Under the pieces are notes generated by a model, which did not search any database, was not told where the DNA came from, and worked only from the letters and a program-made list of their open reading frames with translations. 64,000 bases of DNA. Source: a virus (lineage: Duplodnaviria; Caudoviricetes). A program made the translations under genes and the position numbers. The stretch lies in the IMG/VR virus record IMGVR_UViG_3300013121_000036, positions 32,001 through 96,000 of that record; one strand, given 5' to 3'. Below, piece after piece: positions 3,008-62,968 of this stretch. Position 1 is the stretch's first letter, and every line of letters begins with the position of its first letter.

Positions 3008-3045
3008 CATCGACACATGGCCAGGTCCACTTCGGGCCTGGCTTC

Positions 3046-3118
3046 GAGGCCATAGCTCAGCAGGTAGAGCGGCGGGTTCTAAACCTGCAAGTCGCCGGTT
3101 CGAGCCCGGCTGGTCTCA
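3046..3118 (+). tRNA. amber suppressor tRNA (anticodon CUA)
   Basis: acceptor GAGGCCA/TGGTCTC, D arm GCTC/GAGC, anticodon stem GCGGG/CCTGC with loop TT-CTA-AA, T arm GCCGG-TTCGAGC-CCGGC, A73; no encoded CCA. Confidence 0.92.
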
Positions 3119-3133
3119 CGAAGGAGAACGAAG

Positions 3134-3724
3134 ATGGCGAAGTTTGCTTGGTTCATTGAGAGCGACGGGTACCTGAAGAAGGAGTTTGACGACATCTGGG
3201 ATACCGTAGAGGATGCCGTGAAGTTCGGAGTGGAACAAGACATCCTCAAGAAGGTCGTCGTTGGATCGGTCGAGCCGATGATCCCGTGGGACGCGATCAC
3301 CGCTGTCGACGTTGCCATGCTGAGGGAAGACGAAGGACAACTGTCTCCGCAGTCGCTCCTGGGCATGGTCTACGGGATGTTGCCACCTCTCATCAACGAG
3401 ACTTTCGTGTTCCTGAAAGGCGGGGCAGAAGCTGCCTTTCAGGAAATCATGTCACGAGGTGGCAACGACGACGACTTCCTTGCTTGGTGCAAGCAGTACA
3501 TCGAGGCCGACCCAGAGACATGCGTCTTCGGTGTTCACCCACTACCGCTTGGCTTCAGAAACGGTCACTGGTGCATGGCATCGGATGAGGACGTCTGGGT
3601 TGACGTTCACATCGAGGACGACGGCTCGTTCGGAGGTTGGGACTGGTACGCAGGGGCCCCAGCATCGTGGGGCACATGCGACAGCCTACGAGAGGCGATG
3701 AGCCTTGCCAGCGGTCGTAAATGA
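3134..3724 (+). CDS. hypothetical protein
   Basis: AAGGAG RBS, 196 aa. Confidence 0.7.
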   Translation: MAKFAWFIESDGYLKKEFDDIWDTVEDAVKFGVEQDILKKVVVGSVEPMIPWDAITAVDVAMLREDEGQLSPQSLLGMVYGMLPPLINETFVFLKGGAEAAFQEIMSRGGNDDDFLAWCKQYIEADPETCVFGVHPLPLGFRNGHWCMASDEDVWVDVHIEDDGSFGGWDWYAGAPASWGTCDSLREAMSLASGRK

Positions 3725-30011: not shown

Positions 30012-31187
30012 ATGATGCAAGATCCGAACATCCAAGCCCTGATCAACAACGTCAACCGTCAGAACGCATTCCTGCGGCAGCTCAGCGACAAGACCGTGGC
30101 CAGCGAGGAGGCCGCGAAGCGAGCACTGAACCAGCTCGAAGGCATGAAGAGCGTCATGTCGCGACTGAGCATCGGTGGCGGCGGTGGCGTGAGCCGGTTC
30201 GGCTCGAACGCCCCCATGGGCAAGGGACCGAGCGGCAAGTGGGTGTCGCTCGACGAGATCCCCGGCCGCCGCATCCCCTACGACTTCCACGTCAGCATCC
30301 TCATCCGAAACGGTGAGGCGAGCGAGACGAGCGGAACGCTGTACGTCACCCCCGACGGCCCGTTCGTGGCGACGGCGCGGTACGCCATCTTCCAGTCGGC
30401 GCACCAGTTCCGCTACTCGTCGGAGAGCGGCGTGTCGACCTTCAGCGGTCGCTCGTATGGCCGTTTCCGCCCCATCCACTCTGCCAACGACATCATGGAC
30501 GCGCAGAGGGCCTTCGAGCAGCTCTCGATGTACCAGCCCTCGTACGTCGGAGCCACGCTCAATCCGGCCGGCAACGCAATCGTCCCCGTCCCCAACCCCG
30601 CTGCCGTTCATGTCGGCAACGGTGGCGGCGCCGGCACCGCGACGTCGGACCAGTCGAACCTGCTCCCCAACTTCCCCGGCAACGGCGCTCCGATCTACAC
30701 GTCGCCGCTGTCCATGGCAGCTTTCCGCACGATGCAGTTCGACGGCCGGTTCGTCGTCGCGGTGAAAGGGTCGCAGTTCCAACGTGCGGAGGACCCGAGC
30801 GGCGTCCCTTCGACGTTCTGGGCAACCAGGGGCAGCGATCCGTTCCCCCTGGCGTGCGAGGACATCTTCGACCCGGGCGAGACCATCGAGATCAAGGTTC
30901 GCCCGAACCATCCGAACAACCCCCAGTTCGGCAACATCTCTGGCCTGATGTATCAGGGCAACGACTTCACGTTCACTCCCGCCACGGCATCGTCTGCCAA
31001 CAACCCCGCCCCCGTCGGCCCGTTCCCCTTCCTGTCGGGCCAGTTTGACGGGCACGAGGGCATCAACGACCGATCTGTTCAGGGGGACTCGACCAGCACG
31101 ACGGATCGGGTGAGCCGCGCCGAAGACGGAATCCTGATCATCGGGTTCCTCGGCTACCGCATCCTGCCCCCGCCTGGCGTCTACTGA
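30012..31187 (+). CDS. putative second jelly-roll capsid protein with N-terminal coiled coil
   Basis: AGGAG RBS; DGPFVA...FDPGETIEIKV...IIGFLGYRI. Confidence 0.55.
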   Translation: MMQDPNIQALINNVNRQNAFLRQLSDKTVASEEAAKRALNQLEGMKSVMSRLSIGGGGGVSRFGSNAPMGKGPSGKWVSLDEIPGRRIPYDFHVSILIRNGEASETSGTLYVTPDGPFVATARYAIFQSAHQFRYSSESGVSTFSGRSYGRFRPIHSANDIMDAQRAFEQLSMYQPSYVGATLNPAGNAIVPVPNPAAVHVGNGGGAGTATSDQSNLLPNFPGNGAPIYTSPLSMAAFRTMQFDGRFVVAVKGSQFQRAEDPSGVPSTFWATRGSDPFPLACEDIFDPGETIEIKVRPNHPNNPQFGNISGLMYQGNDFTFTPATASSANNPAPVGPFPFLSGQFDGHEGINDRSVQGDSTSTTDRVSRAEDGILIIGFLGYRILPPPGVY

Positions 31188-48691: not shown

Positions 48692-49078
48692 CTACTTGAA
48701 CCTACGCCTCGGGTAACACTTGAAGAACAGGTTGGACAGCTCCAGCCTCGTCTTCATGGTCGCCTTTCGCAGCTTCTTTGCAACTTCGCTGTCGCCACAC
48801 TCTTTGGCGGCCTCCAGGCAGGCATCCTTCAGCTCCTCGTCTGTCAAGGCAGCCATGATTCTGTTCTTCAGGCTGATGTACCTGGACCTGCGCATGGTCT
48901 CCAGCATGAAGTAGTTCACGTACGAGAGAACGTAGTCCGGCGACACGAAGCCGATGTCCTCCAGGCTGCAAGCCGCCGCCATCACCTGGACTGAAGCGAT
49001 GCGATGACCGAACAGCAAGAGCGCGTCGGAAGCGCCCTGCTCTGCCGCTATCTTCATGATTTCCATGGCGCGCCTCAT
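48692..49078 (-). CDS. hypothetical protein
   Basis: ends in TAG, in frame with next gene. Confidence 0.55.
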   Translation of the reverse strand: MRRAMEIMKIAAEQGASDALLLFGHRIASVQVMAAACSLEDIGFVSPDYVLSYVNYFMLETMRRSRYISLKNRIMAALTDEELKDACLEAAKECGDSEVAKKLRKATMKTRLELSNLFFKCYPRRRFK

Positions 49079-49314
49079 CAGAAGAAGGTGAACGTTTGTT
49101 CGAAACGAAGTTCGTTTTCAAGGCACAGTTGAAACACACCGGAGTCGAGCAAGACCCTGTAGTACGGTGGTCTTGTGTTGTCTCCCATGACAACGTGAGT
49201 GCCGACAACCTCTCCAAGCTCTCCATAGCAAGCGAGGTCAGGTTCGGCGACCACGACTCTCGTGCCTTTTGGATGGGCACTTGATACCCACGCGCGCTTG
49301 TCATCGTCAGTCAT
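49078..49314 (-). CDS. small SH3/KOW-like protein
   Basis: GTRVVV...GELGEVV...YRVLLD...ENEL. Confidence 0.55.
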   Translation of the reverse strand: MTDDDKRAWVSSAHPKGTRVVVAEPDLACYGELGEVVGTHVVMGDNTRPPYYRVLLDSGVFQLCLENELRFEQTFTFF

Positions 49315-49885
49315 TTGACACCTCCTCGTACATGTCCTTGAGCAGCTCGTCGCCGTAGTTGGTGCCGACGATGGCCTCTACGATCTTGCGCAGGTTTCTG
49401 TCTTGCTTGGCCAACTTGCTCACAAGAATCCTGGCCATCTCGATGTCGATGCCGCGATCTTTGAACCAGAGTCGGGCGCTTGCCTCATCCCCGTCGACAT
49501 AGAACATGCTTCTGAGCACGGGACCGTACTCAGAACGAAGTGTGTTCAGCGACCCCATCAGCTTGCTCGGCGACGAGCTGCCGGACAGCCTGTATCTCCA
49601 GGCTTTGATGCTCTTCAGAACGTCCTCGTCCTCGTCTTCGCAGCCGTCGACAAACTCAGGCGCAAGTCGAATGGCATACCCGCCACTGCTGTATCCATCA
49701 ATAGACAACTTCAGTGCAAAGCCGTCTCCCGAGTACACGTAGATCCTGCCAATCTTGGCGATGTGGCTATGATCTATCCTGGCGATGCGGAGCATGGTCT
49801 TCACCATCTCGACTGGGTCGCTGAGGCGGTTCTCCTTGGCCTGTCCGAGGTACACGCTGAGCTTTTCTTTTTCGTTTTCCATCAT
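49307..49885 (-). CDS. hypothetical protein
   Basis: start follows the repeat-borne RBS. Confidence 0.65.
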   Translation of the reverse strand: MMENEKEKLSVYLGQAKENRLSDPVEMVKTMLRIARIDHSHIAKIGRIYVYSGDGFALKLSIDGYSSGGYAIRLAPEFVDGCEDEDEDVLKSIKAWRYRLSGSSSPSKLMGSLNTLRSEYGPVLRSMFYVDGDEASARLWFKDRGIDIEMARILVSKLAKQDRNLRKIVEAIVGTNYGDELLKDMYEEVSND

Positions 49886-49964
49886 CGTTTTCCTTGCTAG
49901 CTGCCGAATGGCAGCGGGCCCCGCCCGAGGGAACGATCCTCGGTGCGCCAGCGCGGGGCTTCGT

Positions 49965-50867
49965 TCACACCTTGACGAACTTGCCCTTGTTGTCGAGGCG
50001 GTACGCCACGTTCGCCTCGATTCCGTCTTTGCCGACGTATCCGACGGCAAGGAGAGGGCGCTCCCCGTCATGCCACCAGATCGAGATGGTGCCGCCATCT
50101 CCAGCGCGAGCCGAACCGCCAAGCAAAGATTCTGCGTGTCCACGGTAGCCCGCCATGGCATTCCCGCAGTGACCCGCTCTGGCCTTGCCGAGGTCTCCCG
50201 CTGTTGCCGTACCGTAGTCGCCCGCCGAGGCCATGCCGCGGTATCCGGCCGAGGCCGTGCCGTTGTACCCAGCATATGCTTTGCCTCGGTATCCAGCCTC
50301 TGCTCTGCCGTGTTCTCCTGCGGTGGAGACGCCTCCTGAGGCCACCAAGGCTGTGCCTCGGTCTCCCGCAATGGCTCTGCCGTTGATGGCCGAGATGGCC
50401 GTGCCCTCATCTCCCGCGATGGCCGTGCCCTCATCTCCCGCCGTGGCCTCGCCCTTGTAGCCAGCGATGGCCGTGCCGCAATGGCCCGCCTTGGCCGTTC
50501 CGAAGGCGCCCGCCGTCACGGTGGTGAAGTTGACAACGACGTCCTTGGGCGCCCTGTCTGCGATGTACTTGGCAGCGTCGTGGCGACAACCGCAGAACAC
50601 CACGGCGCCTCGGGGAAACTTCACCTTGTCGCCGAGGTCGACGATGCAGTCCTCGTCAACCTCAACCACCAGCCACTTCGCGTCGTCGCTGATGCTGTAG
50701 TAGACGATCGCCCCAGCACCCCAGAGGCAGCCGTGCAGGCCGCCTCCGCACCGAGGTCTTGGATTCCAGTCAGGCGCCTCCACAGGGCCCTCTGTGGGCC
50801 ACACGAAGCCATCGCGGGATGTCATGTCAGAGTTGCACGTTCTCAACACGAGCACCTTGCTCATCAT
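49965..50867 (-). CDS. ice-nucleation-protein-like repeat protein (18 octapeptides)
   Basis: VLVLRTC...WP..G.V...LWGAG...KW.V.EV...VKFPR N-domain, AGxxGxAT repeats, GI..N..Y C-cap. Confidence 0.8.
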   Translation of the reverse strand: MMSKVLVLRTCNSDMTSRDGFVWPTEGPVEAPDWNPRPRCGGGLHGCLWGAGAIVYYSISDDAKWLVVEVDEDCIVDLGDKVKFPRGAVVFCGCRHDAAKYIADRAPKDVVVNFTTVTAGAFGTAKAGHCGTAIAGYKGEATAGDEGTAIAGDEGTAISAINGRAIAGDRGTALVASGGVSTAGEHGRAEAGYRGKAYAGYNGTASAGYRGMASAGDYGTATAGDLGKARAGHCGNAMAGYRGHAESLLGGSARAGDGGTISIWWHDGERPLLAVGYVGKDGIEANVAYRLDNKGKFVKV

Positions 50868-50956
50868 CGTTCTCCTTTCGAGCATTCTCGCCCGCCAGTG
50901 GCCACGATAAAGGCTCATGGTCACTGGTGGGCGCCCCTCCTAAGAGGGGCTTGCCT

Positions 50957-51586
50957 TCACTCATCTTCGTCTTCGATCCTGGCAGTCACCAGAGCGACGG
51001 ATTCAATGTACCCGTCTTCTCCGATGGGCACGATGGCGTCCTTGTAGACGTAGTAGTCCTCGCGGTCTCCATCTCCTTCGCACCTCGCCGCCCAGTCTCT
51101 CAGCCCATCAGCGTCATAGGTCGTCGAGCCGGTGGCGAACAGCTTTGCGCCACTGGCCTCGATCAGCTCCTCAACCGCATCGACGAGGCCGAGTCTGTCG
51201 TCATCGTCCTCCTCCCTCAGGATGTCCTCGTAGACCTCGTCCCAGTGGTCTACCCAGACGTAGTTGGCTGTCTTTATCGCCCTCTCCACGAAGCCCTCTG
51301 GATTGCCTGCCTGGGAGGCGAGCCAGTTGAGCGCGTCGATGTCGCCGTCTGCTGGCTCGAAGCCTCGCATGTAGTTGATGACCTCAGACCTCGTTGGGTG
51401 TGGATCCAACCTGATCCAACCCATGGCTATCCATGCGCCGGCCATGTCGGCCGCGCTGGTCCACGACGGAGCGTGACCCTGTCCTCTCGCAAAGGACGCG
51501 AAAGACTGCCCGTCTCCAGGTATGCCGGCGACCTTGTCGGCCAGCTCGAACGCATTCTCGATGGTGCTCATGGTTTCCTCGCTCAC
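50957..51586 (-). CDS. acidic hypothetical protein
   Basis: Asp/Glu-rich ORF. Confidence 0.65.
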   Translation of the reverse strand: MSEETMSTIENAFELADKVAGIPGDGQSFASFARGQGHAPSWTSAADMAGAWIAMGWIRLDPHPTRSEVINYMRGFEPADGDIDALNWLASQAGNPEGFVERAIKTANYVWVDHWDEVYEDILREEDDDDRLGLVDAVEELIEASGAKLFATGSTTYDADGLRDWAARCEGDGDREDYYVYKDAIVPIGEDGYIESVALVTARIEDEDE

Positions 51587-52023
51587 TCGAAGACGTCTTT
51601 GGCCATGTCAAGGTAGTTGAAGTCAGGAACATCAGCTTCTTCGCCTTCTTCTGGCATGTCCCAGTCAGCGACGTCCTGGGTCGCACAGCTCGCGACCTCT
51701 TCGACCATGGACATCCTGTCCTGGTACTCAGAACCCTTGTCGCTCTCCTGCCACCGCTCGGAGCGTGACTCGAACACCTCCGTCATCTCGTCGAGCAGGT
51801 TCTGAGCTTCTGATTCGAGTTCGGCCAAGGCGTTCTCGGCGGACTCTTTCTCCGCCTTCATGCTCTCGAACGCATCTTTCAGGTCCTTCTCGCTCGGCCT
51901 GTCCGACTCGTCTTCGTTCTGCCTGTCAACCACGATCTGGTTGTAGTCTTCCACCGCCTGAGCGAATGCGTTGCATTCAGACTCGGCGTTCTTGATAGCA
52001 ACCATGAAGTCTTTCTTGCTCAT
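51583..52023 (-). CDS. very acidic helical protein
   Basis: RBS in repeat; Asp/Glu-rich. Confidence 0.7.
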   Translation of the reverse strand: MSKKDFMVAIKNAESECNAFAQAVEDYNQIVVDRQNEDESDRPSEKDLKDAFESMKAEKESAENALAELESEAQNLLDEMTEVFESRSERWQESDKGSEYQDRMSMVEEVASCATQDVADWDMPEEGEEADVPDFNYLDMAKDVFE

Positions 52024-52106
52024 CGTTGTTCTCCTTGCTAGCTGCCGAATGGCAGCGGGCCCCGCCCGAGGGAACGATCCTCGGTGCGCCAGCACGGGGC
52101 TTCTTG

Positions 52107-52598
52107 TCAAACGTACTTCCAGTCGCCGGACGACACGTACCCGGCAACGAACCCTTGCTCGTCGTAAGCCTTCAGTGACGGGCCGTCGTAACCCCTGAGC
52201 GTCAGCTCGTCAGAGATGACTTCGAGCGAGACTGCTGTGATGTCCTCGGTGACGCCTGTGTCGTCAACGAGGTTGACCGTGAAGGTTTTCATTCCCATCT
52301 CCTTTCAGAACGAGTCCTCTCCGTCCATGCTGCCGTAGACGTCTTCGTAGTAGTAACCGTCATCGTCGTCGTTGCGGTCCTCGTAGTGAGGCGTCGGGTC
52401 AGAGTACGACATGGCCTCTTCGTACGTAGGTGCTCCGCTGTCGACATACTTGCCGACGGAGGCGCTGAAGAGCCTCCCCCTGGAGTGCTCTCTCTCGCAG
52501 ATGAAGCACACGTCTGGAGCATCCGAGTCGCCGTTCAAGTCTCTCCCAACGGACCTCACGCTCTTTCTGTTCTTCTTGCACAGGTCGCACTGTGGCAT
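52107..52598 (-). CDS. two small hypothetical genes (52107-52298, 52305-52598)
   Basis: AAGGAG RBS each. Confidence 0.6.
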
Positions 52599-52671
52599 CT
52601 TCGTCTCCTTGTCTGGGCTCGTGGTCCCATTCGGGGGATCGGGTGTCCGATCCCCCTGACGGGATCCCGAG

Positions 52672-53142
52672 TCAGCCTGGCTCTGGGAACGTTCCGCCGT
52701 ACACGTCGGCGTAGAACTCCTGTATGTCGGAAGTGTAGCCGTGGCTATCCAGCTCTTCGTCGTCCGCCCAGTCTTCGCTCTCCCTGACGGCTTGACCGAG
52801 GTCGGAGTAGCCAGTGAAGCTGACTCGCTCGCCTGGGAAGAAGACCTTCGCGTTGGTCTTGGTGCCGAAGTACAGCACGCAGCCCGTCCGCTCGACGATG
52901 GCGCAGGTGTCGGTGTTCCTTCGAGCGAAGGCCCTCGTCTTCTTCGTGGAATCGACAGACCAGACGAGCAGTCTCTGGGCCTTGGCCCTGTTCTCTCGCT
53001 CCTTGGCCGTCACGGTCTTGGCCGACGGTTGCACCTCAGCAGCGGTCTTGGTGGCGGTCTTGGTGGCGGTCTTGGTGGCGGTCTTGGTGGCGGTCTTGGT
53101 GGCGGTCTTGGTGGCGGTCTTGGTGGTCTTGGCAGCGGTCAT
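52672..53142 (-). CDS. hypothetical protein with (TKTA)n N-terminus
   Basis: 12-nt tandem repeat at about 53042-53137. Confidence 0.65.
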   Translation of the reverse strand: MTAAKTTKTATKTATKTATKTATKTATKTATKTAAEVQPSAKTVTAKERENRAKAQRLLVWSVDSTKKTRAFARRNTDTCAIVERTGCVLYFGTKTNAKVFFPGERVSFTGYSDLGQAVRESEDWADDEELDSHGYTSDIQEFYADVYGGTFPEPG

Positions 53143-54288
53143 TCGTTGGCCTCCTCGGGTGGCGTCTGGTCGTAACCTGTAAGCTCAAAGAGCTTTGTCT
53201 CGGTGTCGTACGAAGATGCCTCGTACCCGTGCATCTCCTTGACTTTCACGTTCACGGCTCGCATCGGCCGGTGGTTCGGGCCAGACCTGACCTCGACGAC
53301 CTCGATCTCGACGGAGACGCCGAGGTCGAGCGACTCGACGAGTGCCCTCATCTCGCCGACGGGTGTTCCAGAGTCAAACGTGATGACGTTCTTGTACCCT
53401 GACTGGTGCATGTCTTCCTCACTTCTCATCGAAGGAGAGCTTGCTCTTACCAGCCTGCTCTCGGTGCACGTTCGCCTCTTCGACGATCTCGTCGAAGGCA
53501 AGATCGTCGTCCTCTTGTCCGGCAAGACGGATGGCCAGCCAGAACATGACTGTCATCATCTCGCTCTTGGACATGTTCCTCATGATGTATTCAAACTTCT
53601 TCTCGGAGTTCATCATCGTTCCCTTTCAGACCCTTGAGCTGCACCAGCGCCCACCGATCGGTAGTTCTCGGAGGGACAACTTCGACAAGAACGGCGTGGT
53701 TGAGAAGCCAGGCTCCGGCGAGTAGGCCCCCATGTTCATCTTGCTCTCGTGCCGGAGCCAGATGGACAGTACGCTCTCTTCCAGCTTCTTCATTGCCGCT
53801 GGGAAGCTGTCGGTGCGGTGCGCGTTCTTGTTGGCTCCCCTGGCTGTGAGGAGCGCGCGAATGGCGAAAACTCTCACGTCGTGCCACTCATCAACGTTGG
53901 CGTCTCGATGGATGCCTGGGAAGCTATGCTTCGCGACGAGGGAGTACAGGGCGTCGGCGAGCATGTTCTTGCCCGGCTCGATGTTCCCTATCGCGCTGTC
54001 CCACGACTTGAGGATTTGGTTGGCGAAGTACACGAGGCTCATGATCTCGTGCACCCTGCGGTAGACGGGATCTTCATGGTCATCCCTGCCGTCGAGGATG
54101 ACCATGTTCTTCGAGAGAGGAATGTCGCCGTCTCTCAGCCTCGTGTCGACGCGCTTGATGACGCCCTTCCTCTCAAGGGAAGCCAAGACGTTCTTCGGCT
54201 TGAGGCTCCCGTCGAAGTAACCGACGCCAACCGACTCCCTCCTCGCGTCGACCAAAAGCTCGGCTTGGGCAAATGAAAGCTCCTTCAT
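53139..54288 (-). CDS. three hypothetical genes (53139-53411, 53419-53616, 53626-54288)
   Basis: RBS and packing. Confidence 0.6.
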
Positions 54289-54370
54289 CAACGTTCTCCT
54301 TGTTGGCTGCCGAATGGCAGCGGGCCCCGCCCGAGGGGACGATCCTCGGTGCGCCAGCGCGGGGCTGCGT

Positions 54371-55222
54371 TCACGCCTTGACGAACTTGCCCTTGTCGTT
54401 TACGCGGTACGCCACGTTCGGCTTGATGCCGTCCTCGCCGACATATCCGATGGCAAGGCGAAGGCGGGATCCGTCATACAACCAGATCGAGATGGTTCCG
54501 CCATCTCCCGCCGTGGCCTTGCCGCCCTCTCCCGCCGTGGCCTTGCCGCCCTCTCCCGCCGTGGCCGTGCCGAAGTCGCCAGCCGTGGCCGTGCCGTGTT
54601 TGCCAGCCGTGGCCGAGCCGCAGTTGCCCGCCGTGGCCGTGCCTCGGTCGCCCACCGTGGCCGTGCCGTTGTAGCCCGCCGTGGCCATGCCGCGGTTTCC
54701 CGCCATGGCCATGCCGCCATCTCCCGCCGTGGCCATGCCGTCGTTGCCAGCCGTGGCCGTGCCGCCCTCTCCCGCGATGGCCGTGCCGCCCTCTCCCGCC
54801 GTGGCCTCGCCCTTGTAGCCAGCGATGGCCGTGCCGCAATGGCCCGCCTTGGCCGTTCCGAAGGCGCCCGCCGTCACGGTGGTGAAGTTGACGACGACGT
54901 CCTTGGGCGCCCTGTCTGCGATGTACTTGGCAGCGTCATGGCGACAGCCGCAGAACACCACGACGCCTCGGGGAAACTTCACCTTGCTGCCAAGGTCGAC
55001 GATGCAGTCCTCGTCAACCTCCACCACCAGCCACTTCGCGTCGTCGCTGCTGCTGTAGTAGACGATCGCCCCAGCACCCCATAGGCAGCCGTGCAGGCCG
55101 CCTCCACACTGAGGCTTCGGATTCCAGTCAGGCGCCTTCACAGGGCCTTCCGTGGGCCACACGAAGCCCCCGTAAGCCTTCATGTTTTCGCGACATGTTC
55201 TCAACACGAGCACCTTGCTCAT
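54371..55222 (-). CDS. ice-nucleation-protein-like repeat protein (16 octapeptides)
   Basis: paralogue of 49965-50867. Confidence 0.8.
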   Translation of the reverse strand: MSKVLVLRTCRENMKAYGGFVWPTEGPVKAPDWNPKPQCGGGLHGCLWGAGAIVYYSSSDDAKWLVVEVDEDCIVDLGSKVKFPRGVVVFCGCRHDAAKYIADRAPKDVVVNFTTVTAGAFGTAKAGHCGTAIAGYKGEATAGEGGTAIAGEGGTATAGNDGMATAGDGGMAMAGNRGMATAGYNGTATVGDRGTATAGNCGSATAGKHGTATAGDFGTATAGEGGKATAGEGGKATAGDGGTISIWLYDGSRLRLAIGYVGEDGIKPNVAYRVNDKGKFVKA

Positions 55223-55308
55223 CAACGTTCTCCTTGCTGGCTGCCGAATGGCAGCGGGCCCTCCCGAGGCGCGTCACGCCTCGTTCGCAGACTGCGGAGG
55301 GCTGTGTG

Positions 55309-57498
55309 TCAGGCCGCCTCGCCTGGCAGCTTCCCCACTTGACGATGGTGGTGCCGCGCGAGGCCAACAGCCTCGCGCCACTCTTCGTCTGTCAGTTTGC
55401 TTCCGCAAACCTCGTACCTGGCGAGGATCTGCCTCCCTATCGGGCCCGTGGACTTGCTGAAACCGATCCCGTTCAGCTCTTTGGCCTCGTCGACATCGTC
55501 GCCGAGGAGTTGGTAGAGCGCTCCGATGGCGAACTCCTCTGCGGGGCTGGCGGCCTCTCGCCTCCCCTCCAGCGTGACCCTCACAACCTCCCTTGCCAGC
55601 TTGACGTGCTTCGGCTTCGTGTTGGAAGTCGTGGCTTGGTCCGAAGGCGTCGGAGCCAGGGAGATCATCGGTACGTACACCTCGCCGGCCCTCTGTGGAA
55701 GAGAAGCCTCGCCCTCCTTGATGGTGGCGTTCCCGACGCTCGCGGCGATCTTTTCCATCTTGTCGCCGATGACCTGAGCCACCCTCTCCTCAACGAGGTG
55801 GTCGCCGACGAGCACCGTCACCGTCACAGGCTTCGTTTGACCGATGCGGTGGACACGCGCCGCCGCCTGCTCATTGAGAGCAGGGGTCCAAGCCTCGTCG
55901 AGAAAGACGACGTTGCTGGCCCTTGTCAGCGTGATGGCCACACCTGCTGCCGTGATGGTGCAAGCCACGCCCCTCAGGTCACCACGCTGGAAGGCTTCCT
56001 CCACAGCCGACTTTTGCTCGGCTGACTCCTCCCCCGTGATCTTGCCCCACCCCTCCATGGCAGCCAGGGAGTCGATGGGCTCGCGATGCATCGACATCAC
56101 GACGAGCGGCTCGCCAGCCTCTTGGTACTCCTGCACGATCTCGGAGAGCGCAGGAACCTTGCTTCGAGCTATCGCCGCTCGGATGGCGCTCAGCTTCTCG
56201 AAAGAAGCCGTCGCCTTCAGCAGTTCCTCGTCGGAGAGGCCCTCCATGGCCCTTGCCAGCTCGTCACAGGCGGCCCTGCCCTCGGGCGTAAGCTCCACCG
56301 TTCGAAGAACCCTTGTGAGGGACGGGATGTCCCTCGCGACGTCAGCCTTGATGCGGCGAAGGATCCCCTTCTTCAGGTGGTCGCCCGTCTCCTTCTTGGG
56401 GACGCCGAATTCATATCCTCCCCATGGCCCCTTGTACCCCTCGAACAAGTACAGGAACTGAGCCCAGGGCCTGTCGCCGAACACCTCCCGCTCGACACCG
56501 GCCACAGAGCAGAGCCCCCACAGTTCGAAGGGGCGGTTGAGCATCGGCGTGGCCGTCAGAAGCCACGAACGGCCACCGCTGTCTCGACAGGCTTTGGCCA
56601 TCGCAGCGAACGACTGCGTTCGCTTCGCGTCACGCTCTTTCAGCGCGTGAGCCTCGTCGGCAATGACGACGGTGCCCATCGGTGGAGACGACACGCTGTC
56701 GGGCGGCGGCAGGATGTCGTAGTTGGTGATGATGATCTCGCCGTGCTTGGGCCACCGGAAAGACCCGCGACCCTTGAGCACAACCGGCTTGAACTCCGGC
56801 CTCCACTTGCCGATCTCTCGCTTCCACACGCCCTTGGCGACGGCGGGGCAGACGACGACAGCACCAACGCTGTCAGCCTCGGGGAGCGAGCAGAGCGTCT
56901 GCGCCGTTTTCCCCAGGCCCATCTCGTCGCCCATGATCGCGCCCTTGCGTGGCGCGAGCCACAGGACGCCCTCCTCCTGGTATCGGCGAAGTCGCTGTCC
57001 CCGCTCTGCGAGCTTCTTCTGGATGCCAGCCAGTCGCGCCTCGACAGCCTCGATGGCGCCGTTGTGAGCTTCCGCCTCGTGCTTCAGCACATCGGCTCCC
57101 TTGGCGATGAGAGCGCCGACGCCCTCATCGCTGGCCTTCACCTCCCAACCTGCCTCTTGCAGAGCGAGGACGATCTTGATCGCGTCCTTCGCAGACGCGA
57201 TGTCCCTCGAACCGGGCCCTGTGACCCGGTTCCACCTGCCGCCACCGCCAGAGATGATTCGCTTCGCCCTGTCCCAAGCGTCCCTGTCGGAACGCCCGCC
57301 AGCGAAGTAGAAAGCAACCTCGCCAGACTGCGTCGATGCTGTCGCGACGTACGGATGCTCCTGAGCCTTCTGCGCAGGGGCACATGACTCGTGGAAGGTG
57401 ACCCACCAGCCACCAACATTCGAGGCGATTCCGGCGCCCGCCTCGACGGGGCGGGCGCACTTGCCGCACCGACCCTTGTACTTGTTCTTCACAACCAT
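55309..57498 (-). CDS. SNF2-family helicase
   Basis: YQEEGV, GDEMGLGKT, IADEAH, LTATPMLN, LRRIKADV, QAAARVHRIGQ. Confidence 0.92.
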   Translation of the reverse strand: MVVKNKYKGRCGKCARPVEAGAGIASNVGGWWVTFHESCAPAQKAQEHPYVATASTQSGEVAFYFAGGRSDRDAWDRAKRIISGGGGRWNRVTGPGSRDIASAKDAIKIVLALQEAGWEVKASDEGVGALIAKGADVLKHEAEAHNGAIEAVEARLAGIQKKLAERGQRLRRYQEEGVLWLAPRKGAIMGDEMGLGKTAQTLCSLPEADSVGAVVVCPAVAKGVWKREIGKWRPEFKPVVLKGRGSFRWPKHGEIIITNYDILPPPDSVSSPPMGTVVIADEAHALKERDAKRTQSFAAMAKACRDSGGRSWLLTATPMLNRPFELWGLCSVAGVEREVFGDRPWAQFLYLFEGYKGPWGGYEFGVPKKETGDHLKKGILRRIKADVARDIPSLTRVLRTVELTPEGRAACDELARAMEGLSDEELLKATASFEKLSAIRAAIARSKVPALSEIVQEYQEAGEPLVVMSMHREPIDSLAAMEGWGKITGEESAEQKSAVEEAFQRGDLRGVACTITAAGVAITLTRASNVVFLDEAWTPALNEQAAARVHRIGQTKPVTVTVLVGDHLVEERVAQVIGDKMEKIAASVGNATIKEGEASLPQRAGEVYVPMISLAPTPSDQATTSNTKPKHVKLAREVVRVTLEGRREAASPAEEFAIGALYQLLGDDVDEAKELNGIGFSKSTGPIGRQILARYEVCGSKLTDEEWREAVGLARHHHRQVGKLPGEAA

Positions 57499-57581
57499 CA
57501 CCGTTCTCCTTGCTGGCTGCCCGAAGGCAGCGGGCCCCGCCCGAGGGGACGATCCTCGGTGCGCCAGCGCGGGGCTTCTTG

Positions 57582-58505
57582 TCAAACGTACTTTCGCAAG
57601 CTCTCCGCGAGATCCCGCCAGTCGCCGCCGGCCACCTTGGTTGGTACCTTGGCGTCAGGGAACTTGCTCCTCAGAGCTTCACCCCACATCGAGAGTCTGT
57701 GTTCGTTGAACACACCCGTCTTGAGGGCGAGCGTGTAGACGGCGTCATGCCCGCCGTGACATGCGTCCAGGCAGGCAACAGCAGCCGCTGCGAACTTGTC
57801 GAGCTTCATCTTGGCGATCTCGAACGGGAACGAGGCGGCTTCTCGTCTCCTTTCCACGACGCCATCTTCCACCATGAACCCATCGGTCTTCGGCGGGGTG
57901 TCGTCGTTGCTGCCGCGGAACGCCTCCAGGTCAGCAGCGATGGCATCGTAGACCTTGTCGAGAGAACGACGAGTGTGGCTCGTGATGCTCCCTTCGAGCT
58001 TTGCAAGATGCGGCCTGACGATCTCCTCGACTGCACCGATGGTCTTGTCGTCGCACCAGCCGACAGAGAACACGTTGCCGAACCTGTGCAGGTGACTGAG
58101 CCCAACAGACAGGGCGCCGTCGTTGCACCACAGCTCTGCGCTAACGCCTGATGTTGCGCCTCGAAAAGACGACCCAAACCTGAGGCGTCCTTTGTACTTC
58201 TCGCAGATGGAGCGAACGATGACGCTGCTCGCCTGCCACGGTATCGGTGCCAGACCAGTTGGGTTCCAGTGGCCGGTGGCGTGGATGGCCCACGCGAGCC
58301 TGGACGCATCTCGCGGGCACAGAGACCTGACTCTCTCGACCAGCGACTCATCGTCGGGGTACGGGCACAAGAGGTTGTGCGGCTCTTGTGACATCCCCCT
58401 GCAAGCCTCGCCCAACTCAAACGCGAGCCTCTTGTGTTCCTCTGGAAGACCCATGAAGAACGGGAGAGCAGCCTCCCAGAAGGCCGTTTCGTAATCGAAC
58501 TGCAT
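57582..58505 (-). CDS. hypothetical protein
   Basis: RBS in repeat. Confidence 0.65.
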   Translation of the reverse strand: MQFDYETAFWEAALPFFMGLPEEHKRLAFELGEACRGMSQEPHNLLCPYPDDESLVERVRSLCPRDASRLAWAIHATGHWNPTGLAPIPWQASSVIVRSICEKYKGRLRFGSSFRGATSGVSAELWCNDGALSVGLSHLHRFGNVFSVGWCDDKTIGAVEEIVRPHLAKLEGSITSHTRRSLDKVYDAIAADLEAFRGSNDDTPPKTDGFMVEDGVVERRREAASFPFEIAKMKLDKFAAAAVACLDACHGGHDAVYTLALKTGVFNEHRLSMWGEALRSKFPDAKVPTKVAGGDWRDLAESLRKYV

Positions 58506-58595
58506 CTTTCTTCTCCTTGTTGGCTGCCGTGTGGCAGCGGGCCCTCCCGAGGCGCGTCACGCCTCGTTCGCAGACTGCGGAGGGCTTGGTGGTTG

Positions 58596-59906
58596 CTACT
58601 TGGTGACGGCGGCGTAGATGGATTGCCACGTGCGCTCCATGGCGCTCACGTGCTCTTTGCTGCCGTCCGCAGCACCATCCATGTGGCAGCACTCGTGAAC
58701 CAGGACACCAAGCATCTTCGGCTCGTCGTCGAGCAGGGCGGCCTTGATCGTGATCAGGCCCTGCTTGTCGTCACACGTCCCGAGGAGGTTCGGGTCTCGG
58801 AACGTGGAGAACTTCAGGTTGGCCAGGTGAACGTCGTGACCGGCTTGCTGTACGAGATGCAGACACTTTCGCACACGGGCCCTCTGCTCTGGAGACACGT
58901 CTGCCCACTGTACCGTTGACGTGACCTCCTGCTTGAGCTTGATCTTCCGGTCGCCAAGGGCGCCCGTGACCTTCTCGGCGACGGCCTGGAGCGCCTCGTT
59001 CACGACGACACCCTTCAGGCCGAAGTGCTCGACCTCTTGAGCGTCGGCCATGTTGCTGACCGGAACCGCGTCGGTCCCGAACTCAGCCGTGAACTCAGCC
59101 AGGATGGCCTTCGCCTGGTCATCGGAGAACCGATGAGCGTCGTACTTGCTGAAGTTGACGCCGTTCTCGTCTGGGCTGCGGAGCTTCTTGTATAGCTCCG
59201 CGTTGGCGATCTTGCCGTTCCGGTTCGCCTCCAGCCAGATGGCCTCCATGGCCGCCTCGGCCGTCCACCTGTCGACCATCTTGCGCTCGATGTCGGTTTC
59301 CACGCCATCGAGGTCGTACCCCTCAGGTATTCGCCATGACGCCACGTAGATGCCCTTGACGAAGACCATGCCGACCCTGTCGTGGTCTTTGATGAGGCGA
59401 CCACGGGTCGTCTCGATCGCGTTCCTCGGCGGCGAGAGGAACAGGAACTTCCCCTTGTACTCCTCCCACGCGGCCGATGAGATGCCCTCGATCTCGACGG
59501 TGACGTCGCTCGTCTTCAGGCGTGCCTGCCTGAAGTTTATCACAAGCACCCTCCGGTTGAACTCATTATCGAACTCGATCGCAGGGGCCCAAAGCTCGTC
59601 GCCGTTCCTGATGCGGACCTTGTGCCCGGCGCGTGCGAGCGCGAGAAGACCGAGGGTCAAGCCCTCTCCGTACTTGCCGATCGTATCAGACCGGAGACGC
59701 TTCGACGACTCTCCGATCAAGAGCGCGGCGCGGGGGATGGTGATCCCCTTGTTCGAGATGGTGAGAACGTCCCCTTTGTGAGAGACGCTCATCTCTGCTC
59801 CGTGCTCCGTTTCTGCGTCGCGGGCGTTCTGGATCAGTTCTCGAACGCCCTCCCACGTGCCCCACCAGTTGCGGTAGTCGACCGTGAGGCCGATGCTCAT
59901 CTTCAT
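58596..59906 (-). CDS. GHKL ATPase fused to a zincin-like HExxH domain
   Basis: VRELIQNARD, GESSKR, IGKYGEGL; LVHECCH. Confidence 0.8.
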   Translation of the reverse strand: MKMSIGLTVDYRNWWGTWEGVRELIQNARDAETEHGAEMSVSHKGDVLTISNKGITIPRAALLIGESSKRLRSDTIGKYGEGLTLGLLALARAGHKVRIRNGDELWAPAIEFDNEFNRRVLVINFRQARLKTSDVTVEIEGISSAAWEEYKGKFLFLSPPRNAIETTRGRLIKDHDRVGMVFVKGIYVASWRIPEGYDLDGVETDIERKMVDRWTAEAAMEAIWLEANRNGKIANAELYKKLRSPDENGVNFSKYDAHRFSDDQAKAILAEFTAEFGTDAVPVSNMADAQEVEHFGLKGVVVNEALQAVAEKVTGALGDRKIKLKQEVTSTVQWADVSPEQRARVRKCLHLVQQAGHDVHLANLKFSTFRDPNLLGTCDDKQGLITIKAALLDDEPKMLGVLVHECCHMDGAADGSKEHVSAMERTWQSIYAAVTK

Positions 59907-59984
59907 TTCCGTTCTCCTTGCTGGCTGCCCGAAGGCAGCGGGCCCCGCCCGAGGGAACGATCCTCGGTGCGCCAGCGCGGGGCT

Positions 59985-60302
59985 TCACAGTTCGATGATG
60001 GTCTCTCGTTGACCACCTGTCGCTGCCAAGAGGCAGGCGGCCTTGTCGGCCTTCCTATGCCCCCTCGGTACGAATTGGAACAGGGCGCCCGTCCTCGACG
60101 TGTGGCGAGGGATCACGCGCCCCTCTATCGAGTTGGCGAAGTCTTCGAGACCTCGCGAGCGGGCGGCGGAGGCCGCCGCCTCAGCGAACACCCTGTAAGC
60201 CTGCCGAAGAGCCTCGAAAGGCTGTTCTTCGCTGGGCTTTCCGTTTGGCGTCAGCACTTGCATCCTGACGCCCTCGGGCTCAAGGCTGACGCGGACCTTC
60301 AC
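59985..60302 (-). CDS. hypothetical protein
   Basis: GTGA overlap. Confidence 0.55.
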   Translation of the reverse strand: MKVRVSLEPEGVRMQVLTPNGKPSEEQPFEALRQAYRVFAEAAASAARSRGLEDFANSIEGRVIPRHTSRTGALFQFVPRGHRKADKAACLLAATGGQRETIIEL

Positions 60303-60631
60303 GGCTCCACCTCTGCGAGCAGACGCCTTAGCTCCGAGAGCCTCCCGGCGAGGTTCGCGACGGCCTCGTCCACCATGTCGTCGTAGGAGTCGGACGACTT
60401 GAAGTCAGCCTCGGACTCGTACGAACAGCCGCCGAGATACACAGGTTCGCCTGAAACGCCCCCGTACGTGGCCCAGACCTTCGCGCAGAACCACGCGAAG
60501 ATGTTGCCGTCGTTTGACTCTTTCAGGATCTCTAGGACAACTTCGTTGTCCTCTATGCACCCGCCAGGGTGCATGTCCTCGTCCAGGGGTACGAAATGAA
60601 TCGCGACCCCCTTGGTGTCTTTCGTGATCAT
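60299..60631 (-). CDS. acidic phage hypothetical protein
   Basis: own AAGGAG RBS; WFCAKV...YLGGCSY. Confidence 0.7.
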   Translation of the reverse strand: MITKDTKGVAIHFVPLDEDMHPGGCIEDNEVVLEILKESNDGNIFAWFCAKVWATYGGVSGEPVYLGGCSYESEADFKSSDSYDDMVDEAVANLAGRLSELRRLLAEVEP

Positions 60632-60694
60632 GTTCTCTCCTTCTGGGCACGCTTGCCCCATGGGGGAGACGACCGTTGTCGGCTCCCCGAGCGG

Positions 60695-61180
60695 TAAGCG
60701 TTTGGTCTTCTTCTTGAAGACGGCCGGCGTGGCGCTCCATGGGAGATGGTGCGTCACATCGCCCTTCTCCCTCGCCTCATCGAGGCTCCTGTTGACGCCC
60801 TCCCAGAAGGCGTCGAATTTGTACTTCGCGAGCGGGGAGGGCTTGCACACGTTCGTCGCGACGGAAGCGACTTCGTTCTCCTCCCGCTCGTACTCGATCG
60901 CAACGTGCCCGCTGCCGTCGCAGTCGTACTCTGGGGATTTGATCCCCAAGAACAACGAGAAGAGGCTGGCGTTCACCTTGTGCCGGTCAACGACGCAGCC
61001 GTGGGCGATGATGAAGCGACGACAGCACGGGCATCGGGCCCACACGCCGACGCCAGCCCACCTGCCGAGGCGAGAGTGGTACCCGTAGCAACATGGGTCT
61101 CCATCTTCGTCTTGCGTGACTTCGCGCGCCTCGCACTCAGCTTCGCGAATGCGGGAGCACATCGTGATGCACTTCTTCAT
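60695..61180 (-). CDS. Cys-rich hypothetical protein (ends at TTA)
   Basis: KKKTKR-TTA followed by two hairpins and the next RBS. Confidence 0.6.
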
Positions 61181-61566
61181 GATCCCTCCACAACGATGTA
61201 GAGGTATCCGAACGAGCGCCGCGGGGACGCTCTCACGGTGAAGCCGCCGCCGAGATCCTTTCGGATCTCGGTCTCATCCTCCGGGGACAGGTTCTGGGCC
61301 TCTTTTCTGACCCATTTCATCCCCTGTTCGACCTTCTTCTTGAGGGCTTTGGGGAATTCCGCTGGCATCACGGAAGTCCTGTTCCAGACCAGATCGACGA
61401 CCATTGCGCTTTTGCGCACCGTCGTGAGCCTGGTGACCATCTGTCCGCTCACAGAGCGGACTCTCCTCTTCTGCTGGATGGTCCGTGTCTCTCGCGCGAA
61501 GATGGCGCGGGCTCCCCACGCCATCTTCGCGTCAGGGCTAGGCTGTAGCCCGAACTGAAGACTCAT
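61177..61566 (-). CDS. hypothetical protein
   Basis: RBS in repeat; AWGARAI...SFGYLYI. Confidence 0.65.
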   Translation of the reverse strand: MSLQFGLQPSPDAKMAWGARAIFARETRTIQQKRRVRSVSGQMVTRLTTVRKSAMVVDLVWNRTSVMPAEFPKALKKKVEQGMKWVRKEAQNLSPEDETEIRKDLGGGFTVRASPRRSFGYLYIVVEGS

Positions 61567-61648
61567 CGTCGTTCTCCTTGCTAGCTGCCCGAAGGCAGCG
61601 GGCCCCGCCCGAGTGGACGATCCTCGGTGCGCCAGCGCGGGGCTTCGT

Positions 61649-62836
61649 TCACGCCTTGACGAACTTGCCCTTGTCAAGGCGGTACGCCACGTTCGGCTCG
61701 ATGCCGTCCTCGCCGACGTATCCGACAGCGAGTCGGCGTCGCTCCCCGTCATGCCACCAGATCGAGATGGTGCCACCATCGCCCGCCGTGGCCTTGCCGC
61801 CATCTCCCGCCGTGGCCTTGCCGTCCTCTCCCGCCGTGGCCGTGCCGAAGTCGCCAGCCGTGGCCGTGCCGTGTTTGCCAGCCGTGGCCTTGCCGTAGTC
61901 GCCAGCCATGGCCATGCCACGGTGGCCCGCCGTGGCCGTGCCGTGTTTGCCAGCCGTGGCCTTGCCGTAGTCGCCAGCCATGGCCATGCCACGGTGGCCC
62001 GCCGTGGCCTTGCCGTCGTATCCCGCCGTGGCCATGCCGCGGTCGCCCGCCGTGGCCTTGCCGTAGTCGCCAGCCATGGCCTTTCCGCGGTGACCCGCTG
62101 TGGCCGTGCCGCGGTGACCCGCCGTGGCCTTGCCGTCGTGACCCGCCGTGGCCGTGCCGTCGTTGCCCGCCGTGGCCGTGCCGTCGTTGCCCGCCGTTGC
62201 CATGCCATGGTTACCAGCCGTGGCCTTGCCGCCGTTACCCGCCGTGGCCTTGCCGTCGTGACCCGCCGTGGCCTTGCCGCCGTTACCCGCCGTGGCCTTG
62301 CCGTCGTGACCCGCCGTGGCCGTGCCGAAGGCGCCCGCCGTGGCCTTGCCGTCGTGACCCGCCGTGGCCGTGCCATGGTTACCAGCCGTGGCCTTGCCGC
62401 CGTTACCCGCCGTTGCCATGCCATGGTTACCAGCCGTGGCCGCGCCGCCGTGGCCGACCAGAGCGGAACAGTTATCTCCCGCCGTCACGATGGCGAAGTT
62501 GACGACGACGCTCTTGGGCGCCCTGTCTGCGATGTACTTGGCAGCGTCGTGGCCGCCGCCGCAGAACACCACGACGCCGCGCGGAAACTTCACCTTGTCG
62601 CCAAGGTCGACGATGCAGTCCTCGTCAACCTCCACCACCAGCCACTTCGCGTCGTCGCTGTTATCGTAGTAGCCGATCGTCCCAGCGCCCCAGAGGCAGC
62701 CGTGCAGGCCGCCTCCACACCGAGGCTTCGGATTCCAGTCAGGCGCCTCCACCGGGCCCTCCGTGGGCCACACGAAGCCTCCGTGGGCCGTCATGTCAGA
62801 GTTGCACGTTCTCAACACGAGCACCTTGCTCATCAT
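61649..62836 (-). CDS. ice-nucleation-protein-like repeat protein (30 octapeptides)
   Basis: third paralogue, longest repeat tract. Confidence 0.8.
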   Translation of the reverse strand: MMSKVLVLRTCNSDMTAHGGFVWPTEGPVEAPDWNPKPRCGGGLHGCLWGAGTIGYYDNSDDAKWLVVEVDEDCIVDLGDKVKFPRGVVVFCGGGHDAAKYIADRAPKSVVVNFAIVTAGDNCSALVGHGGAATAGNHGMATAGNGGKATAGNHGTATAGHDGKATAGAFGTATAGHDGKATAGNGGKATAGHDGKATAGNGGKATAGNHGMATAGNDGTATAGNDGTATAGHDGKATAGHRGTATAGHRGKAMAGDYGKATAGDRGMATAGYDGKATAGHRGMAMAGDYGKATAGKHGTATAGHRGMAMAGDYGKATAGKHGTATAGDFGTATAGEDGKATAGDGGKATAGDGGTISIWWHDGERRRLAVGYVGEDGIEPNVAYRLDKGKFVKA

Positions 62837-62865
62837 CGTTCTCCTTGTTGGCTGCCCGAAGGCAG

Positions 62866-62968
62866 CGGTGGCTGTAGCCGGAATCGAACCGGCTCGCGAC
62901 ACGATGACCAACGTGCGGCAACGACACCATGTCGCCACCGCAAGCGTCGCTATCACCAGAACCAGCCA
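62866..62968 (-). ncRNA. tRNA-like element (tmRNA-TLD-like)
   Basis: perfect T arm GCCGG-TTCGATT-CCGGC, partial acceptor GGCTG/CAGCC, A-CC end, no D stem or anticodon loop. Confidence 0.55.

Follow-up and report, generated by a model that had tools for sequence, protein, structure and literature searches.

Background

Structured signals between cistrons that give rise to stable mRNA units are known from several systems: the polycistronic mRNA of the T7 early genes is cut at RNase III sites, and 5' hairpins, such as that of the ompA leader, stabilise the messenger. RNase P and RNase Z cleave the t-elements of plant mitochondria (Forner et al. 2007, PMC1920247). Cluster K mycobacteriophages carry start-associated sequences and extended start-associated sequences (SAS/ESAS), repeats of one orientation located just upstream of the starts of unrelated genes and including the ribosome site, with an inverted repeat of variable spacer just upstream, for which a post-transcriptional or translational role is assumed (Pope et al. 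2011, PMC3203893). The promoter early stem-loop (PeSL) cassettes of T4-type phages combine a sigma-70 promoter with a terminator stem-loop (Arbiol et al. 2010, PMC2839356). In this work we are describing a repeated RNA element which fills many of the gaps between leftward-transcribed genes in a 64,000-nucleotide stretch of DNA from an uncultured phage (hereafter the window), comprising bases 32001-96000 of the IMG/VR virus record IMGVR_UViG_3300013121_000036, a record of 110,758 bp in total whose ends share only an exact repeat of 141 bp.

The element, of which ten members were found, is predicted to consist of a Y-shaped, tRNA-like structure and a 6-bp hairpin placed just before the Shine-Dalgarno (SD) sequence. 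It resembles t-elements in being a non-canonical tRNA-like fold at mRNA borders, with the conserved T-arm motif in one member; in addition, a true tRNA abuts a ribosome site in this phage, and cuts by RNase P or RNase Z may be proposed as in tRNA punctuation. The differences are that t-elements are organellar and the present units belong to a phage, that eight or nine of the ten members are devoid of T-loop sequence, D arm and anticodon arm, and that the phage unit, known here from sequence alone, includes a fixed extra hairpin and an SD. With SAS/ESAS the likeness is limited to the layout: there is no similarity to the 13-bp SAS consensus or the 17-bp ESAS inverted repeats, and the phage element is larger, forms a three-way junction with covariation and occupies the whole gap from stop to start. 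Like PeSL, the units are small repeated cassettes between accessory genes, and recombination between copies reshuffles the flanking genes (as in the relative L054, see below), but they have neither promoter nor terminator. They share with the T7 RNase III sites and the ompA leader the principle of structured intercistronic signals yielding stable mRNA units protected by end hairpins, although their stems of 6-7 bp fall short of the classical RNase III substrate of about 20 bp, and the fold is Y-shaped. Core sites of integron attC (RYYYAAC ... GTTRRRY) were not found on inspection of the borders of the ten copies, and the tyrosine-recombinase domain encoded nearby, at the distal end of the leftward gene arm, sits inside a 1414-aa protein. 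Since the defining sequence or signal features of t-elements, SAS/ESAS, PeSL and T7 RNase III sites are not found in them, the elements belong to none of these classes. They are repeated regulatory cassettes at phage gene borders, for which the evidence of an RNA fold is unusually clear and a connection with tRNA processing can be put to the test.

Copies and placement of the element

A covariance model was built from the six type A copies and their RNAfold structure, and was run on the whole genome and on the contigs of its relatives. Ten members were obtained in the 110.8-kb genome: six of type A (106-111 bits), two of type B (54-62 bits), a tRNA-like copy (40 bits) and variant D (36 bits); one partial copy was additionally matched in a relative. 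The members, with their model scores, are listed below in window coordinates unless stated otherwise.

49883-49962, minus strand: type A copy 1, 110.9 bits, repeat family D4; preceded by the stop of a DUF7666 paralogue, followed by ATG 49882
52024-52103, minus strand: type A copy 2, 108 bits, with a U-G wobble in the outer stem; ATG 52023
54289-54368, minus strand: type A copy 3, 107.9 bits; ATG 54288
57499-57578, minus strand: type A copy 4, 109.5 bits; ATG 57498 of an SNF2 helicase gene
59907-59986, minus strand: type A copy 5, 108.8 bits; ATG 59906
61567-61646, minus strand: type A copy 6, 106.4 bits, top pair of the inner stem broken; ATG 61566
55223-55305, minus strand: type B copy 1, 62.4 bits, E 4e-15; ATG 55222 of a DUF7666 paralogue
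58506-58588, minus strand: type B copy 2, 54.2 bits; ATG 58505
62834-62967, minus strand: ninth member, a degenerate tRNA-like RNA with the shared hairpin and SD, 40.4 bits, E 7e-9; ATG 62833
genome 97088-97172, just right of the window: variant D, the tenth member, 36 bits, E about 1e-7

A preliminary description of this DNA had reported eight copies, six of type A and two of type B, all of which were recovered on the minus strand where it had placed them; its total was too low, however, as the ninth member and variant D have to be added. Independently of the model, a repeat search returned all six copies of type A, both of type B and, nine times, the module formed by the shared hairpin and the ribosome site, and the 16-nt hairpin motif occurs exactly nine times against 0.58 expected. 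Each member lies on the minus strand, in the sense orientation of the genes on either side, and fills the gap from stop codon to SD. Nine begin 1-10 nt past a standard stop codon, and variant D begins 11 nt past an in-frame TTA.

Fold and covariation

For types A and B alike, RNAfold gave an outer stem enclosing a weak mini-hairpin of 2-3 bp and a strong inner hairpin, followed on the 3' side by two unpaired C, a 6-bp tetraloop hairpin and a free SD, with energies of -36 to -41 kcal/mol per approximately 83 nt. The folds proposed earlier for both types were reproduced in this way, with one restriction: the 5' mini-hairpin (GCGC and CGCA stems) does fold as 2-3 bp, but it is weak and ambiguously aligned. 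All members follow one scheme. The outer stem, of 7 bp or, in the ninth member, 5 bp, begins with a G-C pair; a stem of 6 bp carrying a loop of 7 nt abuts the 3' strand of this outer stem; the linker that follows reads CC, or ACC in the tRNA-like copy; next comes the hairpin, its stem invariant and its tetraloop variable, and 2-4 nt later the SD. The tetraloop is C(UUCG)G, which is extra-stable in RNA, in five of the ten hairpins.

In the alignment fitted to the model, standard pairs occupy 99.1% of cells and both sides have changed in 10 of 21 pairs, including 3/7 in the outer stem and 5/6 in the inner stem. None of 500 shuffles matched the observed pairing and covariation, and controls with slid partners paired at just 33-51%. 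Four cells hold G-U and none holds A-C, which identifies the minus strand, that is the mRNA sense, as the strand that folds. Also without fitting to the model, the 6-bp stem of every variant is perfect, bears a loop of 7 nt and lies flush to the 3' strand of the outer stem; an alternative drawing of the type B inner hairpin has 8 bp and a 3-nt loop. Outer stems of types A and B are distinguished by two double compensatory changes, and in variant D the inner stem has a different sequence and one outer pair is changed, with identical geometry.

Because their inner stems have a 5-bp core in common, types A and B are to be regarded as diverged homologues. The preliminary statement that different sequences adopt the same fold was somewhat overstated for A versus B, yet it becomes valid when variant D and the tRNA-like copy are taken into account. 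Its conclusion that the RNA structure is under selection is borne out by the covariation, by the presence of G-U without A-C and by substitutions in relatives that avoid stems (see below), and we regard a sense-strand RNA fold under selection as well supported.

Variation among near relatives

Near relatives were available as five short contigs from four sequencing runs (SRR1027651, DRR235450, SRR29708229, SRR30892202), with orthologous genes at 94-100% nucleotide identity. Twenty of the 22 differences that fall within element columns are in unpaired positions; since about half of the columns are paired, substitutions clearly avoid the stems. The two stem differences are a U-G to C-G change in the copy at 52024-52103 (in L054) and a change in the loop-closing pair of the hairpin. 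In the L010 orthologue of the copy at 59907-59986 the differences are confined to linker, loop and unpaired bases.

The tetraloop is the most variable part. The 1,230-nt contig L055 differs from the window only in five consecutive bases, which are the tetraloop and one adjacent base (52041-52056; L055:22-37), and orthologous copies in other relatives also differ mainly at the tetraloop. AUUC, UUCG, ACAC, UCAG, UUGG and GUGA were found across the copies and relatives, always on an invariant stem. This hypervariability is most simply explained by gene conversion among the ten copies; a mutational process targeted to the loop may also account for it.

A separate observation concerns a small gene starting near 53616, the SD of which is one base shorter in the window than in a 98%-identical relative (53590-53625; L053:700-725). 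The stop codon of the upstream gene overlaps this SD, so that the same SD form is present outside the repeat family. The first 7 nt of L053, which extend the shared hairpin into the SD, were treated as a possible fold-back assembly artefact.

Recombination seams

In L054, a relative of 94% identity, a DUF7666 paralogue stands upstream of an orthologous copy of the element, in the place occupied by a small gene in the window, which marks a rearrangement breakpoint at the element. Two unrelated upstream genes have their last 16-18 nt, including the stop codon, identical next to the repeat, and three DUF7666 paralogues share the same 3' end and element, duplicated together (family D5). The exchange in L054 and the shared gene ends make the elements seams of mosaicism: near-identical copies of about 80-100 bp act as seams for homologous recombination and genes are shuffled as cassettes, which we regard as an evolutionary by-product. 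The portable cassette of the preliminary description is in this sense justified by the swap of the upstream gene at one copy and by the terminal codons common to unrelated genes.

Link to tRNA

The upstream half of the ninth member (62834-62967) consists of a 5-bp acceptor-like stem, a long extra hairpin, a canonical T arm and ACC. Its T arm fits GGTTCRANYCC, the motif of plant t-elements. ARAGORN reports a degenerate cloverleaf there only at relaxed scoring, and the match to the Rfam tRNA-Sec model (19.1 bits, E 0.12) is below threshold. No tRNA gene was found in the array by ARAGORN at default settings or at Rfam gathering scores. For comparison, a true tRNA located elsewhere in the window, in another operon, was used:

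3046-3119, plus strand: suppressor tRNA(CUA), detected by ARAGORN and by Rfam tRNA at 64 bits (piece compared, 3046-3133)

This tRNA has no encoded CCA, and the SD that follows 2 nt after it has the form seen in the elements, with ATG at 3134. A hairpin precedes it (window 3020-3134, plus strand), so that the tRNA is embedded in mRNA. As a CCA-less tRNA lies 2 nt from an SD, cuts by tRNA processing beside a ribosome site must already occur in this phage. One and the same slot is therewith occupied by a graded series, from a genuine tRNA through a tRNA-like RNA in decay to Y-shaped elements with stacked acceptor-like and T-arm-like helices and CC. When tested as tRNA mimics, all variants showed stacking of an acceptor-like stem on a hairpin resembling a T arm, with a loop of 7 nt. 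The graded series is our main reason for favouring RNase P or RNase Z as readers of the element.

T-arm-like hairpins in L047 were tried as intergenic tRNA mimics and rejected, as they are part of real tandem suppressor tRNA genes. In L047:8715-8819 (plus strand) the 3' half of a tRNA (T arm, 3' strand of the acceptor, ACCA) comes after a suppressor tRNA and ends directly at the ATG of the next called gene. The 'tRNA-Asp' reported by ARAGORN at genome 528-602 has no T loop and lies inside an open reading frame (ORF), and was disregarded.

Search for promoters, terminators and known families

Two sigma-70-like promoter sites were found in the 18 kb of the array, which equals the mean of shuffled sequence, and neither is in an element. 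U-tract terminators were counted in the array at the level of shuffled sequence, with none in the elements; both structures of the unit are followed by the CC linker or by the purine-rich SD, hence by no U tract of an intrinsic terminator. The earlier remark that U tract and -10 box are missing accordingly stands. A canonical terminator with a 16-bp stem and a T tract is present elsewhere in the genome, which makes it unlikely that the U-less hairpins of the elements are the terminators of this phage.

In Rfam 15 no family matched at the gathering threshold, and relaxed thresholds gave only noise: the best match, to 'hya', reached 18.7 bits against a threshold of 56.8 and was rejected, and in a control this family gave matches at E<=10 in 8 of 14 control genomes, none above the cut-off. 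Exact-pattern scans of IMG/VR gave no matches, and those in JGI metagenomes (17) and GTDB genomes (10) were single, had no upstream module and were judged to be due to chance. The covariance model gave nothing significant on the contigs of five distant relatives. In a megablast comparison with phage GenBank records the array had no match, and a locus search based on proteins found one distant helicase locus and nothing for the putative capsid-region protein (30012-31187).

The phage genome contained no match to Ro60/TROVE, reverse transcriptase, Csy4 or RNase III. A T7-type RNA polymerase gave no match either, in a search with an uninformative control. For two large proteins (1124 and 903 aa) there was no match in Pfam, and a novel polymerase among them is possible. 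A miniature inverted-repeat transposable element was rejected as an identity of the unit, as there are no target-site duplications and the unit contains a ribosome site.

Proposed role and alternative explanations

In the interpretation to which we attach a probability of about one half, the elements are intercistronic modules of RNA processing, stabilisation and insulation, possibly read by tRNA-processing enzymes. The preliminary description had likewise suggested mRNA processing or stabilising signals, or protein-binding leaders. Fold, strand, placement and the rearrangement at one copy are shown by the sequences; cleavage, the enzymes and any influence on stability and translation are inferred from them. 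They would act in cis within a long leftward polycistronic transcript of the phage. A host endoribonuclease would cut the tRNA-like part at its borders, the most economical guess being RNase P at the 5' border and, jointly with it or in its place, RNase Z or RNase E at the two-base CC linker. The upstream cistron would be left with a very stable 3' structure blocking 3' exonucleases, and the downstream cistron with a 5'-terminal hairpin blocking decay that depends on the 5' end; the same hairpin could serve as an insulator by which the SD stays free of upstream sequence. Every gene would in this manner become an autonomous expression unit. A true phage 'tRNA punctuation', in which RNase P and/or RNase Z would cut minimal tRNA mimics and convert the early transcript into monocistronic mRNAs with protective 5' hairpins, the units serving also as seams of cassette shuffling, is conceivable but unlikely.

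Several points speak against processing by tRNA enzymes or against the modules as we understand them. The T-loop sequence is absent from types A, B and D, which have unrelated loops, and its motif occurs in the ninth member only; the stacked helices have 13 bp versus 12 bp in tRNA; and the outer stem is followed by just CC instead of NCCA. The covariation comes from just four or five independent sequence lineages in an alignment fitted to the model. Finally, the stem of the shared hairpin is invariant in sequence while the other stems covary, which hints at recognition by a sequence-specific protein and would equally suit a palindromic DNA operator.

This last observation is an argument for a binding site of a regulator, either a translational operator in the form of an RNA hairpin or a DNA operator (a 16-bp palindrome, 6-N4-6) blocking transcription in the way of stoperators, the DNA operators which block transcription in Cluster A mycobacteriophages, with the Y part as a separate stabiliser. 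Half-sites invariant in ten copies and in relatives around four hypervariable central nucleotides are the pattern of a dimeric DNA-binding protein, the remaining stems covary freely, and with a tyrosine-recombinase domain protein encoded, a temperate lifestyle with a repressor is conceivable; an operator is still the best explanation of an invariant stem with a free centre. The palindrome is, however, never found outside the SD slot and no copy is near a promoter, the two stem variants seen either preserve RNA pairing (U-G in variant D) or touch only the loop-closing pair, C(UUCG)G loops are frequent, and the compensatory change in the equivalent hairpin of a distant relative would not be tolerated in a protein half-site. 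We consider such a site rather improbable, and are of the same opinion on modules acting mainly at the DNA level, similar to T4-type PeSL cassettes, which would be kept for gain, loss and exchange of accessory genes with the RNA fold incidental or secondary. For such modules there is the PeSL precedent (PMC2839356), and the different gene upstream of the orthologous copy in L054, the identical last 16-18 nt of unrelated genes, the co-duplication of three paralogues with the element and the tetraloop differing between otherwise identical genomes, as gene conversion would give, are all in agreement. Recombination requires identity, though, and not pairing: compensatory changes and the G-U-only pattern are left unexplained, as are stem-avoiding substitutions and the fold common to type B, variant D and the tRNA-like copy, and PeSL have by definition the promoter and terminator which are missing here.

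Control of transcription elongation, by U-less or factor-dependent terminators or attenuators that grade expression or by antitermination RNAs of the kind known from phage HK022, whose put sites are likewise elements with two stems and about 70 nt long, is in our judgement quite improbable. The strong GC-rich stem-loops of -36 to -41 kcal/mol straight after stop codons would suit it, yet a U tract is missing, a canonical terminator of the U-tract type is located at another place in the genome, and between element and SD there is no room for a promoter, so that full termination would silence everything downstream; ten antitermination sites in 15 kb would be unprecedented. There is, finally, very little probability that the hairpin mimics the repeat of a type I-F CRISPR system, as a Cas6f decoy or as a Cas6f-dependent processing site. 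Its 5-bp stem is what we take to be the stem of the type I-F repeat, and so are the next three bases in four copies, which we treat as a lead only. RNA anti-CRISPRs (Racr) provide a precedent for a decoy (PMC10651486). Nevertheless the loop has 4 nt instead of 5, the cleavage site is closed by one more G-C pair, the flanks are unlike those of the 28-nt repeat, no Rfam CRISPR-DR match was found at E up to 10, and the phage has no Csy4 gene.

Repeated motifs at phage gene starts are not new, SAS/ESAS and PeSL being the known ones, and what distinguishes the present case is a fold backed by covariation and an exact placement. To our knowledge, the function of SAS/ESAS and PeSL is mostly not established, and none of them has a demonstrated conserved RNA fold. 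The occurrence of a real and a decayed tRNA in one slot offers a concrete hypothesis of tRNA-processing enzymes punctuating phage mRNAs. If processing and insulation take place as proposed, the organellar principle of punctuation would extend to phages, compact natural 'insulator' parts would become available for synthetic operons, and RNA processing signals would be linked to the modular evolution of phage accessory genes.

Other structured spacers and TTA codons

Three further hairpin-rich spacers had been noticed at the same position as the elements, and are real, the third one under the provision that an in-frame TTA at 60697 ends the upstream gene:

50865-50956, minus strand: unrelated spacer with two hairpins and then the SD, -47.2 kcal/mol, z = -5.3, conserved in L054-L056
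52599-52671, minus strand: unrelated spacer with one long hairpin and then the SD, -42 kcal/mol
60632-60696, minus strand: spacer after the in-frame TTA 60697, with a small hairpin 3-4 nt before the SD; ATG near 60631

Where neighbouring genes of the arm do not overlap, strong structure fills the spacer from stop to SD, usually closing with a small GC hairpin that leaves 2-6 nt to the SD. The genome has 37 hairpins directly before an SD, compared with about 10 in shuffles, and they are clustered in the leftward arm. A distant relative (L011, an ENA contig of 64.9 kb with 39% identity in one array protein) has repeated spacers of its own, of 67-89 nt: in L011:968-4588 (plus strand) six consecutive spacers combine a hairpin with a CAG-rich linker and a second, small hairpin immediately before the SD, one copy having a compensatory stem change. 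Between the arm and this relative the design of the spacer is conserved and its sequence is not.

In-frame TTA is found in only 2 of 21 array genes (60697, minus strand, and another within 48702-49304). After TTA 60697 a structured spacer, SD and ATG come next, and at genome 97183 (L052:2183, minus strand) an in-frame TTA lies 11 nt before variant D; under the standard code the ORF containing it would run through the whole of variant D into the next gene. Placement of elements and spacers gives independent structural support to TTA acting as a stop in this phage.

A second leader family, with a long perfect hairpin, a small 5-bp hairpin and the SD, was observed right of the window, where its three copies precede small genes (minus strand, genome 96.4-98.3 kb; L052:1425-1539, about 2620-2760 and about 3100-3260).

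The leftward gene array

Nearly all ORFs with high GC content at the third codon position are on the minus strand from about 43.5 kb of the window to the right genome end, forming a long leftward arm. Most of its genes have no assigned function; besides the recombinase-domain protein, an SNF2 helicase, a PHROG-6077 protein and the following three paralogues were identified.

49965-50864, minus strand: DUF7666 paralogue with 8-aa repeats, PHROG 18079 (E 5e-76), repeat families D1-D5; a type A copy follows
54371-55222, minus strand: DUF7666 paralogue with a type B copy before and a type A copy after it
61649-62833, minus strand: DUF7666 paralogue with the tRNA-like member before and a type A copy after it

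These paralogues combine a DUF7666 N-terminal domain with DUF4774-type 8-aa repeats of 24-nt periodicity, and are similar to Bbp36 of Bordetella phage BPP-1; the matching stretch in phage BIP-1 is annotated as 'variable region 2'. Hairpins of the type found in diversity-generating retroelements beside Bbp36-like genes were dismissed as a candidate, as no reverse transcriptase was found in the phage genome. No close relative was found among GenBank phages, and weak protein similarities lead to phages of Proteobacteria.

Perfect 12-nt tandem repeats of about 7-8 units (window 53030-53138, minus strand) lie inside a 156-aa gene (52672-53142), where they encode a 4-aa repeat. Further to the right, about 2.2 kb (L052:4323-6497; genome 99.3-101.5 kb) appear non-coding on the minus strand and contain tandem GC-rich repeats of 14-16 nt, AT-richer segments and a strong bidirectional-looking terminator (L052:6131-6165), and this may be a regulatory or replication region heading the leftward arm.

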